NCBI GenBank assembly: GCA_028868375.1
Contig: JAGWUP010000002.1
Location: forward strand, 193,015-257,014
Source: Elusimicrobiota bacterium
GTDB taxonomy: Bacteria; Elusimicrobiota; Elusimicrobia; UBA1565; UBA9628
Direction of reading: 5' to 3'
Length of the DNA stretch: 64,000 bases
In this document: positions 18,585 to 21,213 of the stretch, piece after piece
Position numbering within the stretch: the stretch's first letter is position 1
Layout of the letters: each line of letters opens with the position of its first letter
Program-made: the position numbers and the translations under genes
Notes under the pieces: model-generated
Seen by the model: the letters and a program-made list of their open reading frames with translations, nothing else
Database searches by the model: none
What the model was told of the DNA's origin: nothing

Positions 18585-18618
18585 GCGGCCGCTCAACGCG
18601 CGCGAGCGCCGGCTACTC
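18585..18618. repeat. 34-bp perfect direct repeat, copy 1 (gcggccgctcaacgcgcgcgagcgccggctactc)
   Basis: Identical to 21178..21211. It contains the TAG stop (minus strand) of the beta-propeller gene. Confidence 0.9.
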
Positions 18619-21213
18619 GGGCTGTAACGGGGTTGGCAGTCCCAGCTCTTGGCGAACGATGTCCTCGATGGCGGAACGCAGCTCGGGATTTTCCGCGGGC
18701 AGCAGGCGCTCCACGACCAGGGGATAGATCGCCTCGAGAAGCTCGCGGGAGGGATTGGCGATGAAATCCAGAGTCTGCTTGCGGCGCTCCTCCATCGGCA
18801 GCGGGGAGTCTGGTTTAAAGAAAGCTCCGAAGTCGCCGGCCGAGCGGCCGCGGCCGTCGGCGGTGACGAAGGCGTTCTCGCTATGGGCGTCTGTCATGTT
18901 GTCCCGGCTGCCGCTCCAGCCCGTCATGTGGGCCAGCATCATCGCCGCGGCGTTGCCGGCCAGGACGGTCGGCGCGGCCAGGTCCAGCGGCAAGGGCAGC
19001 CAGTCAACAAGTTTGCCGGTGTTTCTCAAGCGCTTGCCGTCCTCGTAGCGAAAGATCATCAGGCCCAGGGGATTGGATCTCGTAAAACGACGGAGGCGTC
19101 CGTAGAGGCGCAGAGTGCCCGTCCATTGCCCGAAAAAGAGGGGCTCGGGAGCCAGGCCGGGGCCCTCGCCCTGCGGGGCGTTTAGGAGCTCTTGGGCGAC
19201 TTCGAAGTGGGCCGGACTGATCCAGTCGCGGCCTTTCTCCTGGCCCGGCATCTTCAGCTCGACGGCGTAGCCGCCGGCGCCGGCCAATTGCATCCTGCGG
19301 AAGCTTTCGCTGACGGGATTGACCAGCAGCTTGCCGAGGGCGTATTGAAAGCCCTTGCGCTCGGACCAAGCCATCGTCGGCAGCGCGGAGGCGTTGGCGA
19401 GATTGTAGGGAACGGCCATGCGCAGGAAGCTCAGGGCGGTCAGGAAGACGGAGAGCCTGGCGCCGTGGCCCAAGATCAATGAGAGCTGGGGCAGTTGCCG
19501 CCACATTTGATCCTTCGCCCCGTGGCCCCAACGCTTCCGGCCCAGGGGTTTGAGCCCGCCGGAGCCGTTGGCCGAGGAGAGCAGGCGAGCAAGCCGTCCC
19601 CAGAGGGCGACCAGCGCCGAATTGACCCCCGCCCAATCCACTCCGAGGCTGACGGCCAGGCGCTTCAGCTCCTGCTCCGAGCCTTCCAGCACGATTCGCG
19701 CCAACCCGTCTAGGGCTTCGGAGCGCGCCTGCTCATCGACTTGCGGGACCATGGCCTGTAGCCGCAGCGACGGCAGCCAGATCTTGTGGATTTCCCCGGA
19801 TTGGCCAGGGACGGAATGGGCCAGATGGAGCCGGCCGGCCGGCTCCATGCCTAGGGCCACGGCCGGCTTGTCGCTGGCGAAGACCAGGCTCTTCTCCTCG
19901 CCGTCGCGGGGATCGACGAGCAACAATTTGTTGCCGGAAACGGCGATCAGCCTGCCGTCCGGGGAGAAGCCCAGCGGCCCGTAGCCGGACAGCGGCGCGG
20001 CCCTTTGGTAAATCCTCCGGCCGCTCTGTACGTCCCACAGGGAGAGAAGGCTCTTGCCGTTGTCATCGCTGGACAGCACCGCCAGGCGCCTGCCGTCGGC
20101 GGAGAAGACGGCATGGGTGGGCGACCACCAGTCGGAGCCATTTCTGTCAAACCCGGTTCTGAAAATCTGCCGGCCGTCCGCGTCATGGACGGCCAGGGTC
20201 TTCGAGTTCCAGTGGCTGGTGACGAGCGCGCGGCCGTCCGGGGAGATGGCCAGCGGGAAGCCGGGCAGGCTGCTTTGGCCCAGCAGTCTGCCGCCGGCGA
20301 GCTCCCAGGAGGCCAGGACGCTGTTGTCGTCGCTGTCGTAGGCGGCCAGCAGGCGGCCGTCGCCAGAAAAGCGCATGGCCATGGCGTCTTGAAAGCCCAT
20401 CACGCCCAACGTAGGCTCGGCAAGCCAGCGGATGGGGCCGCCGGGATTGTCGAGGTCGAGCAGCCCGACCTGGGAGGCCTCGTTGGACAGGGCCATCAGG
20501 ACGCCGTCCTCGCTGAACGCTCCGTTGCCGATCGCTGCCTCCTCGCCCGTCAGGTCGCGGAGAATCTTGTTCGACCTCGTGTCCCAGAGGGCGGTCCGTT
20601 CCTTGGACATCTCCAGCAGCAGCGAGCCGTCGGGCGAGAGGATGGTGCGCCCGCCGCCGCCGGACTTCGCGTCGATGAACGAGTCACTAGCTTCCCAGTG
20701 ATCCGCCAGCAGGGCGTCGAGCAGCGCGCCCTCGTGGGCCCGGCGCAGGTGGGCGAGGAAGGAGCGGATCAGGCGGGGCGCCTTGAGCGCCGATTGAGGG
20801 GCAAAGCCCAGGGCCCGCGCCTGCCCCCTGGTCAGCCGCGAGGCGGCGGCTCCGGACGTCAGCTCCCGGTGCAGAAGAAACTGGACCAGCTTGTCCTCGA
20901 CCCCGCGCCGCTGCAGGCGGGCGAATTTCTCCAGCTTCGCGTAGTCGCCGGGCTCGAGAGACGGGGCCCGGCTCAGAGTGATCCCCTGCTCCGCGATGGC
21001 GCCGGCGGCGGCGTCGAGATGGTAGCTCTGGACCTCGCTTAGGGCCGGCGGCAGGCTGGGGGCGACGGCCTCGGGCTGGGCCATCGCCTCCGGTTGGGCC
21101 AGCGCCGAGGACGGCGCCAGGCTTGCCAGAGCCAGGAAGCAGCAGAGAAGCAAGCGCGTCAGCACTGGAATATGATAGCGGCCGCTCAACGCGCGCGAGC
21201 GCCGGCTACTCAT
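18613..21213 (-). CDS. Secreted beta-propeller (WD40/TolB-like) repeat protein, 866 aa, with a C-terminal domain of unknown function
   Basis: Signal peptide (LLLCCFLALASLAPSSALA). Multiple SPDG/SxDG blade motifs (ILSPDGSLLL, AISPDGRALV, VFSADGRRLAV, GFSPDGRLIAV). The ~300-aa C-terminus has no recognisable motif. Confidence 0.6.
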   Translation of the reverse strand: MSSRRSRALSGRYHIPVLTRLLLCCFLALASLAPSSALAQPEAMAQPEAVAPSLPPALSEVQSYHLDAAAGAIAEQGITLSRAPSLEPGDYAKLEKFARLQRRGVEDKLVQFLLHRELTSGAAASRLTRGQARALGFAPQSALKAPRLIRSFLAHLRRAHEGALLDALLADHWEASDSFIDAKSGGGGRTILSPDGSLLLEMSKERTALWDTRSNKILRDLTGEEAAIGNGAFSEDGVLMALSNEASQVGLLDLDNPGGPIRWLAEPTLGVMGFQDAMAMRFSGDGRLLAAYDSDDNSVLASWELAGGRLLGQSSLPGFPLAISPDGRALVTSHWNSKTLAVHDADGRQIFRTGFDRNGSDWWSPTHAVFSADGRRLAVLSSDDNGKSLLSLWDVQSGRRIYQRAAPLSGYGPLGFSPDGRLIAVSGNKLLLVDPRDGEEKSLVFASDKPAVALGMEPAGRLHLAHSVPGQSGEIHKIWLPSLRLQAMVPQVDEQARSEALDGLARIVLEGSEQELKRLAVSLGVDWAGVNSALVALWGRLARLLSSANGSGGLKPLGRKRWGHGAKDQMWRQLPQLSLILGHGARLSVFLTALSFLRMAVPYNLANASALPTMAWSERKGFQYALGKLLVNPVSESFRRMQLAGAGGYAVELKMPGQEKGRDWISPAHFEVAQELLNAPQGEGPGLAPEPLFFGQWTGTLRLYGRLRRFTRSNPLGLMIFRYEDGKRLRNTGKLVDWLPLPLDLAAPTVLAGNAAAMMLAHMTGWSGSRDNMTDAHSENAFVTADGRGRSAGDFGAFFKPDSPLPMEERRKQTLDFIANPSRELLEAIYPLVVERLLPAENPELRSAIEDIVRQELGLPTPLQPE
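21178..21211. repeat. 34-bp perfect direct repeat, copy 2
   Basis: Identical to 18585..18618. It contains the TAG stop of the kinase gene and, in another frame, the first 11 codons (MSSRRSRALSG) of the beta-propeller gene. Confidence 0.9.

Follow-up and report, generated by a model that had tools for sequence, protein, structure and literature searches.

A perfect 34-bp direct repeat as the likely scar of a single-gene insertion in an Elusimicrobiota operon

In Escherichia coli, Staphylococcus aureus and Streptococcus pyogenes, direct repeats flank 10–18% of small variable segments, and by the figures cited in the same study a length of 34 bp is just above that needed for RecA-dependent recombination (PMC2884548). 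In E. coli, both an island without a recombinase and a gene flanked by FRT-site repeats excise without RecA (PMC5426353). Here we describe a 64,000-nucleotide stretch, hereafter the window, from the metagenome-assembled genome (MAG) of an Elusimicrobiota bacterium (GCA_028868375.1, contig JAGWUP010000002.1, positions 193,015–257,014), in which a perfect 34-bp direct repeat (the 34-mer) brackets a gene for a secreted beta-propeller protein lying between a Ser/Thr protein kinase gene and an HPPD-like gene. The FRT site is also 34 bp long. We consider it likely, if well short of certain, that the 34-mer is the scar of one recent insertion in which host recombination duplicated the target, and that the event is possibly reversible.

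The repeat, GCGGCCGCTCAACGCGCGCGAGCGCCGGCTACTC, occurs at 18585–18618 and 21178–21211 with no mismatch between the two copies, and two matches to it arose in 0 of 100 shuffles. All the relevant genes are on the minus strand, on which the 34-mer reads GAGTAGCCGGCGCTCGCGCGCGTTGAGCGGCCGC, and in that orientation each copy opens with GAG-TAG followed by 28 nt. The TAG of copy 2 is the stop codon of the kinase open reading frame (ORF) (21208..21206, ending ...AHE*), and the TAG of copy 1 is that of the propeller ORF (18615..18613, ending ...QPE*). The copies start 2,593 nt apart, and removing one of them together with the 2,559 bp between them would, by sequence logic, join the kinase gene, with its stop intact, to the HPPD-like gene. 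On these three points, namely the exactness of the repeat, the stop codon that each copy lends to the gene upstream, and the outcome of a deletion, the first-pass annotation of this DNA was correct.

The 34-mer is otherwise unique wherever it was sought. A fuzzy search found no third copy in the window at up to 3 mismatches and none at up to 8, no approximate copy was present in the window or in the relatives considered below, and the 24-nt core of the repeat had no match in GTDB species representatives, JGI metagenomes or IMG/VR. The only long exact direct repeats across the whole window are the 34-mer and a 69-nt repeat at the valS gene. The edges of the 34-mer are sharp, with no similarity beyond them except a GCCC that can be aligned only with a 2-nt gap.

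The HPPD-like gene has TATACT as its -10 box, and 17 nt before it, inside copy 1, stands the hexamer TTGAGC (18596..18591). The hexamer of copy 2 lies only 6 nt from the next -10 box, a distance at which it cannot serve as a -35 box. We read the 34-mer as a GAG-TAG of the kinase type followed by a spacer with a putative -35 box that would serve the HPPD-like gene. Another reading would make it a functional RNA or DNA element (a terminator, a REP-like sequence or a regulatory site) kept identical by selection. The 34-mer does follow directly on two stop codons, and it is GC-rich with the small palindromes GCCGGC and GCGGCCGC, but we regard this explanation as very unlikely, since only two copies exist in the window and the folding energy of the repeat, on either strand, is no better than that of shuffled sequences (z 0.15 to 1.2). 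Neither copy has a T-tract or a terminator-like match, and the 34-mer has no Rfam match, the sole Rfam match in the scan being a tRNA-Leu at 59912. We rejected the terminator, REP and RNA-element readings on account of the folding, the missing T-tract and the missing Rfam match.

As the window derives from a metagenome-assembled genome, and short repeats are classical points of mis-joining, the repeat or the gene order could in principle have been produced by joining reads from different strains or loci. We judge this extremely improbable. Logan contigs, which were built at k=31 by an independent assembler from three read sets, reproduce every junction at 100% identity. Contig L001 (run SRR32006850; present in three samples) encodes the kinase protein, is identical in sequence to the window and stops after exactly 30 nt of the 34-mer; a k=31 unitig must break at that point if the 34-mer has two different left neighbors. 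It was predicted beforehand that the unitig of the propeller gene would begin 4 nt into copy 2 and that its product would lack the residues 'MS'. An exact look-up returned L007, a contig of 2,619 bp (30 + 2,559 + 30) that is 100% identical to window positions 21207..18589 and is present in three samples. A contig of 8,418 bp on the HPPD side (window 10197–18614) was likewise predicted beforehand, and L088 matches it in exact length and ends, again at 100% identity and in three samples, one end consisting of 30 nt of the 34-mer. Taken together, these three contigs establish that all four junctions (kinase–repeat, repeat–propeller, propeller–repeat and repeat–HPPD) exist in independent read sets.

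In two NCBI MAGs these proteins have accessions that run consecutively (MDE2039411–419 and MDE2424699–707; locus tags KGO96_02160 to 02175; longest contig 294,016 bp), in the order FAH, HgmA, (Flr), kinase, propeller, HPPD-like, 2493-aa protein, 1701-aa protein, valS. A third, fragmented MAG (KGK30, GCA_028870695.1) contains pieces of the same genes, none of which reaches the 34-mer junction, its fragments L002 and P0362 falling inside genes. The 34-mer is not an assembly artefact of this contig, and the concern that it might be an assembly duplication is countered by the junctions found at the predicted unitig lengths and by the shared gene order of the two MAGs.

The genes on either side belong to a homogentisate-pathway cluster on the minus strand, in which Pfam identifies an FAA hydrolase, an HgmA-like protein, a flavin reductase (Flr) and, further on, an HPPD-like VOC protein, the last assigned only by a weak 4HPPD match. 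The kinase and propeller genes sit between the flavin reductase and HPPD-like genes, the latter starting 23 nt after repeat copy 1. The HPPD-like protein is well conserved in Elusimicrobia (869 matches, many at 60–83% identity), and in the three closest relatives with readable context (identity of this protein: the P0243 contig, 82%; L005, 83%; L003/L004, 77%), its gene shares 4 bp with that of the flavin reductase, and both kinase and propeller genes are missing. The kinase and propeller genes in the window are therefore both insertions by comparison with relatives at 77–83% HPPD-like identity, the collections containing none that is close. The check proposed in the first-pass annotation, whether relatives lack the propeller gene at this site, thus has a positive answer. 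No comparable high-identity direct repeats were found in relatives L003 and L005.

Base composition also sets the inserted genes apart. The four genes missing in relatives, which we refer to as the island, have third-position GC contents (GC3) of 0.743 (kinase), 0.856 (propeller), 0.807 (1701-aa protein) and 0.781 (2493-aa protein), all lower than the 0.905–0.95 of the flanking conserved genes. The N-terminus of the HPPD-like protein differs as well, reading ATGAAAAAACAGCCC in relatives and ATGAGGCAGCCC in the window, a difference which suggests that the promoter, start codon and second codon of this gene came with inserted DNA; presumably they arrived with the earlier insertion of the kinase gene. 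In the P0243 contig, valS lies nearby on the other side, as it does in the window, but different genes occupy the interval. Between valS and the HPPD cluster, then, the frame is conserved and its content varies.

Both ORFs that end in the repeat are complete. The kinase has a single full-length homolog, P0001, at 30% identity, with which it aligns up to residue 772 of 784 (785 of 792 in P0001). An alignment running so near to both C-terminal ends implies that the kinase is not truncated and that GAG-TAG stands at its native end. Among GTDB representatives there was no close relative of the kinase, the only match being one of 35% to the kinase domain. PADLOC matches of the kinase cover only the generic kinase domain, and no other island protein had any; a defence-system reading was dropped on this basis. 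A candidate third repeat around the kinase gene (ACCAAGG..GCCCATGA, one copy behind the stop of the flavin reductase gene and the other at the kinase end) was also discarded, as 119 of 300 shuffles scored as well.

The 2,559-bp insert holds one complete gene with no stop codon of its own. Its product has a signal peptide, a WD40-like beta-propeller at about residues 190–430 (in the numbering of an 866-aa form; all its Pfam matches fall short of the curated cut-offs) and, at the C-terminus, a divergent protein-kinase-like domain. An exhaustive phmmer search with the C-terminal half found 86 relatives, 33 of them below 1e-30. Members of this family end in '...VRQELGL' plus 0–11 residues, and the window protein ends in '...VRQELGLPTPLQPE', with 7 extra residues; this family-like C-terminus means that the inserted ORF is complete. 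The C-terminal domain itself (about 300 aa; window 18616–19500, minus strand) represents an uncharacterised family with no sequence match in Pfam or the PDB. An AlphaFold2 model built from 13 family members (pLDDT 90.2, pTM 0.89) gave 222 Foldseek matches with E <=1e-3, and the top PDB matches were all protein-kinase domains (PknB, BRAF, CDKs, Pan3; probability ~1.0, with TM scores of only 0.3–0.4). The motifs D-x-H-x-E-N and G-D-F-G are invariant or nearly so in the family. Together, the model and the motifs indicate a divergent kinase-like fold for this domain. The family also occurs within giant proteins of 4,000–7,000 aa elsewhere, no other ORF of the window contains the domain, and BLASTP detected no paralogy among the inserted proteins. 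A perfect 24-nt palindrome, ATGGAGCCGGCCGGCCGGCTCCAT, lies within the propeller coding region at 19825–19848.

The completeness of both ORFs, each ending in GAG-TAG, together with the foreignness of both genes to the site, allows for an account in which nothing was duplicated here and the 34-mer is a 3' module that the kinase and propeller units already carried when they came from the same donor pool. The -35-like hexamer within the 34-mer could then be a recurrent promoter part. We think such a common origin unlikely. The two copies are perfectly identical and sharply bounded despite the different GC3 values of the two genes, a module of this kind appears just twice in 64 kb and nowhere in the three collections, and in copy 2 the hexamer lies too close to the next -10 box for a consistent register. 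The repeat at valS, moreover, clearly duplicates resident sequence of a core gene.

The start of the propeller gene bears on what the repeat contributes to it. Scanning 6.1 kb for promoters gave three sigma-70-like sites, where 0.4 would be expected, and two of these end exactly 6 nt before the kinase and HPPD-like start codons. Across 529 candidate ATG/GTG starts in long ORFs of the window, the hexamer TAnnnT stands exactly 6 nt upstream at 13 starts, as compared with 0–4 (mean ~1.3) at other offsets. These 13 include the starts of the kinase, the HPPD-like protein, both giant genes, HgmA at 25463 and the propeller GTG at 21165 (TATCAT attcca GTG), and in relative L003 all four layout matches (3770, 3846, 5611 and 7129) coincide with independently called gene starts. 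Examples of TAnnnT-N6-start occur at 5070–5084, 10319–10333, 18559–18573, 21163–21177, 23558–23572 and 25461–25475. This is the layout that would be expected for leaderless mRNAs, and it seems typical of the first genes of operons in this Elusimicrobia lineage; we found no description of a leaderless-type layout for this phylum in the literature.

The claim that the repeat supplies the start of the propeller gene and encodes its N-terminus, MSSRRSRALSG, does not fare well in this light. It applies only to the longest ORF, from an ATG at 21213 whose A and T lie outside the repeat. The start at GTG 21165, 13 nt downstream of the 34-mer, is favored because of the TATCAT-N6 layout, the PGAP call of an 850-aa protein and the short n-region of its signal peptide. 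The GTG form begins (M)LTRLLLCCFLALASLAPSSALA, with an n-region like those of its neighbors and homologs; the n-region of the ATG form has 20 residues, and the 866-aa form is not in the protein collection. MSSRRSRALSG is thus probably an over-extension of the ORF, and the longest ORF should be taken as a warning for annotation, in that it carries the start of the propeller gene into the repeat. It is possible that, on a read-through transcript, the ATG, which overlaps the kinase stop as ATGAGTAG, permits coupled translation. For the HgmA-like gene, too, the longest ORF (426 aa) probably starts too far upstream, as the -10/N6 rule and PGAP both give 25463 (404 aa).

The 1701-aa gene (5082..10187), 8 kb away from the 34-mer, is bracketed by the 69-nt repeat in the same geometry. 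The two copies are 97% identical, with one synonymous difference in a Leu codon of the valS frame and one non-coding difference, and as valS is a core gene, the repeat must duplicate resident sequence around an inserted gene. It is also real, since the break in the L088 unitig falls within its exact block of 39 nt. The 34-mer and the 69-nt repeat alike include the stop codon of the upstream gene. As a baseline, exact direct repeats of at least 30 nt, 0.3–12 kb apart, were present in 5 of 84 unrelated loci (1.14 Mb), so two such repeats in one 20-kb island represent an enrichment, though not an extraordinary one; the baseline loci are valS relatives in metagenomes at no more than 61% identity, which makes them too distant for an empty-site test of the 69-nt repeat.

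Giant secreted proteins missing in relatives are encoded at 5082–10187 and 10331–17812, between valS and the HPPD cluster. The 1701-aa protein has a region with a peptidase M48 motif and a UbiB/ABC1-like kinase region (aa 1291–1492), and the 2493-aa protein has no family match; counting the kinase and the propeller protein, the island encodes three proteins with kinase-type domains. The 2493-aa gene converges with the HPPD-like gene at 17809–17812, where their stop codons overlap in the palindrome CTAG, such that the giant gene ends exactly at the end of the conserved one.

Two events of identical geometry within 20 kb, with insert boundaries that respect the gene, could also point to a site-specific single-gene cassette. 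The 34-mer and the 69-mer would then be attachment sites, and the propeller gene plus one repeat would excise and re-integrate as a 2,593-bp circle through an integrase encoded elsewhere, much as integron cassettes do, or integrative elements that depend on host or trans-acting recombinases. The heptamer GTTGAGC, which fits GTTRRRY, is present in both repeats within a marginal 25-nt similarity, and the Logan k=31 graph forms a loop, running from the propeller segment to the repeat and back, which a 2,593-bp circle together with an empty site would explain equally well. Even so, we find a cassette unlikely. Pfam scans of the major ORFs of the window revealed no recombinase of the tyrosine or serine type and no transposase, the 34-mer has no inverted-arm architecture, no RYYYAAC partner common to both copies and no fold better than that of shuffles, and the repeat core had no match in the three collections. 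GTTGAGC does not lie at a boundary of the repeat, a -10 box of its own sets the inserted gene apart from promoterless cassettes, the 69-mer consists of valS coding sequence, and the similarity between the repeats is weak (p ~0.03, in one test chosen after the fact). An integron reading was rejected because the window encodes no integrase, there is no attC-like fold and GTTGAGC is not at the boundary. A transposon reading was rejected because of the missing transposase, the absence of terminal inverted repeats at the insert ends (264 of 500 and 100 of 500 shuffles were equally complementary) and the absence of any similarity between the ends of the two inserts.

The same similarity invites a more speculative idea, to which we give little credence: an undescribed mode of single-gene addition in Elusimicrobia, by which a compact leaderless gene would be integrated directly behind a resident stop at a loosely conserved ~25-nt motif, AGCCGG-N-GCGC-N-GTTGAGC, with duplication of 34–69 bp by an enzyme encoded elsewhere, and by which the 2,593-bp unit could circularise and move.

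The first-pass annotation had described the locus as a cassette insertion with target duplication. The insertion and the local duplication are borne out by the relatives, the GC3 values and the parallel at valS; the cassette is not, given that no recombinase is encoded in the 64 kb and that terminal inverted repeats and significant secondary structure of the repeat are missing. We favor, and infer from these observations, an origin of the duplication by host recombination or repair without a dedicated recombinase. Before the event, the site would have held the kinase gene, from an earlier acquisition, a short spacer and the HPPD-like gene under the leaderless-type promoter TTGAGC-17-TATACT-6-ATG. 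Foreign DNA of 2,559 bp, bounded by the -10 box and the last sense codon of the one complete gene that it contains, would have integrated there, leaving 34 bp of the target on both sides: the kinase GAG, its TAG and the 28-nt spacer with the -35 box. The proximal copy would have retained the kinase stop, and the distal copy would have lent its GAG-TAG stop to the new gene while also keeping the HPPD-like promoter whole.

Two routes may be envisaged. DNA that was circular or looped could have entered by a single crossover at short homology; alternatively, the upstream gene could have served as the anchor for homology-facilitated illegitimate recombination, in which case the synonymous difference between the 69-nt copies would be one between donor and recipient alleles. 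Host recombination of this kind seems to have acted a second time at valS, where it would have given the 69-nt repeat at the 3' end of the gene. The two duplications differ in length (34 and 69 bp), which speaks against an enzyme of fixed stagger. Recombination or replication slippage could still use both copies of the 34-mer as a substrate for gene loss, and loss of the propeller gene through them is plausible.

Several points weigh against this scenario. Both insertions are gene-precise, running from the -10 box to the last sense codon in the one case and ending exactly at TAG in the other, a precision that random recombination does not predict unless selection is invoked. At the junction no microhomology is an exact fit, GCCC being 2 nt out of place. 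The 34-mer and the 69-mer show marginal similarity (AGCCGG..GCGC..GTTGAGC), although 8 of 500 shuffles and 3% of real 69-nt windows are as good. Homology-facilitated illegitimate recombination usually deletes recipient DNA and does not duplicate it. Finally, no empty allele (kinase–repeat–HPPD) was seen among the population assemblies, all of which carry the gene, and a k=31 graph cannot separate such an allele. The earlier proposal of a recombination hotspot able to excise the gene accordingly stands as possible in principle, though no such excision was seen in the population assemblies.

If the insertion scenario holds, the locus offers a clean example of gene addition to a conserved operon in a poorly sampled phylum. 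Two secreted kinase-like proteins have been placed between genes that are translationally coupled in relatives, a new promoter of the leaderless type came with each new junction, and the 34-bp duplication remains, intact, from the last step. That duplication preserved a stop codon and probably a promoter at once, which may explain why this event survived. Were an empty site or a circle to turn up in reads, the locus would provide a natural model of how genes are gained and lost without a recombinase. The coordinates of the features are collected in Table 1.

Table 1. Features of the repeat-bracketed locus and its surroundings, in window coordinates.
Feature	Position	Strand	Remarks
Repeat copy 2 (proximal)	21178..21211	-	Kinase last codon and stop, 28 nt; abuts propeller -10 box; junctions in L001, L007
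Repeat copy 1 (distal)	18585..18618	-	GAG-TAG ends propeller ORF; junctions in L007, L088
Inserted segment, 2,559 bp	18619..21177	-	Begins TATCAT (-10-like), ends with last sense codon CCC before repeat GAG-TAG
Secreted 850-aa protein gene	18613..21165	-	Likely start GTG 21165; PGAP 850 aa, KGO96_02175; longest-ORF ATG 21213
-10-like hexamer TATCAT	21172..21177	-	6 nt upstream of GTG 21165; leaderless-type layout
Ser/Thr protein kinase gene, 784 aa	21206..23560	-	Missing at this site in relatives
Kinase promoter-like site	23567..23595	-	ATGACA-17-TACACT, 6 nt, ATG 23560
HPPD-like / VOC-family gene, 250 aa	17809..18561	-	Conserved in Elusimicrobia
HPPD-like promoter-like site	18568..18596	-	-35 TTGAGC in copy 1, 17-nt spacer, -10 TATACT, 6 nt, ATG 18561
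Flavin reductase gene	23633..24259	-	Ancestral upstream neighbor of HPPD-like gene
HgmA-like gene	24249..25529	-	Pfam; longest ORF 426 aa
FAA hydrolase gene	25953..26966	-	Pfam
Second repeat copy 1, 69 nt	4930..4998	+	Last 47 nt of valS, TGA stop, 19 nt downstream
Second repeat copy 2	10188..10256	+	Begins directly after TAG of 1701-aa gene
Second inserted segment, 5,189 bp	4999..10187	+	83-nt leader with TACCCT-N6-ATG, 1701-aa secreted protein gene, ends at TAG

Other repeats occur elsewhere in the window. Two elements of ~400 bp, at 25534–25933 and 31041–31443, are 78–95% identical in inverted orientation, and each holds an internal 33-nt inverted-repeat pair ~205 nt apart, giving it a MITE-like look; they flank 5.1 kb (FAA hydrolase, a 246-aa ORF, a histidine kinase and a 546-aa ORF) that is arranged differently in relatives. 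A perfect 35-nt inverted repeat, CTAGTGTAGTGAATCATAAATCCCTTTGCATTTGG, at 29037–29071 and 29296–29330, with arms 224 nt apart, may be a small non-autonomous element. At 60190–61080, a tandem duplication with a 493-nt period and two copies ~73% identical lies upstream of, or overlaps, a prepilin peptidase-like gene.

As to known systems, integron cassettes resemble the locus in being single-gene units in the same orientation with a short element at or after the stop codon, and GTTGAGC fits GTTRRRY. That heptamer is inside both repeats and not at their edges, and the chance of a common 7-mer is ~0.2 by a rough estimate. An attC site measures 57–141 bp, longer than the 34-mer. Unlike integron cassettes, moreover, the locus has no intI or attI that could be found in the 64 kb, the 34-mer does not form an imperfect palindrome, housekeeping coding sequence makes up one of the repeats, and the insert has a promoter element of its own, starting with TATCAT-N6-GTG in a layout that is enriched tenfold. 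The attL/attR sites of prophages and genomic islands are similar in that the repeats hold the 3' end and stop of the target gene (here the kinase gene and valS) and leave it intact. Such elements carry an integrase beside one att site and usually span many kb, whereas each insert here is a single ORF with no recombinase domain, and the architecture of a recombinase core site is missing. Target-site duplications of DDE transposons and insertion sequences have a fixed short size of 2–14 bp; the duplications here are of 34 and 69 bp, with neither terminal inverted repeats nor a transposase.

Homology-facilitated illegitimate recombination usually deletes recipient DNA at the illegitimate end, whereas at this locus 34–69 bp were duplicated. 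In other respects, and as far as the accounts cited in PMC2884548 go (de Vries and Wackernagel, 2002; Prudhomme et al., 2002; Meier and Wackernagel, 2003), the process, which takes place during natural transformation, is similar: foreign DNA is placed beside a homologous anchor (the kinase gene or valS), one junction is seamless and the other illegitimate, and the 97% identity of the 69-nt copies, with their one synonymous difference, would fit donor and recipient alleles.

The H47 island of E. coli and an FRT-flanked cat construct (Azpiroz and Lavina, PMC5426353; PMC3191183) share with the locus their direct repeats and the lack of a recombinase of their own, and in both, excision proceeds through the repeats without RecA or a known site-specific recombinase. 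The FRT model shows that repeats of about the size of the 34-mer suffice. H47 differs in its length of 13 kb and in its long imperfect repeats with four homology blocks, and its excision and circle were shown by experiment. The variable segments of Touzain et al. (2010; PMC2884548) are likewise short, variable among relatives, bounded by a local direct repeat and free of mobile-element genes, and they were ascribed to recombination, either illegitimate or at short homology, which deletion between the repeats would reverse. Most of those repeats are shorter than 30 bp, and the empty alleles were found in strains of the same species; at the present locus the repeats are of 34 and 69 bp and enclose one complete gene with its own promoter. 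The local repeat here has no further copy in the window, the relatives or the three collections, and the segment is missing at the orthologous site in relatives. On present evidence, the locus is an ordinary insertion scar and an example of the known class of gene insertions flanked by direct repeats.

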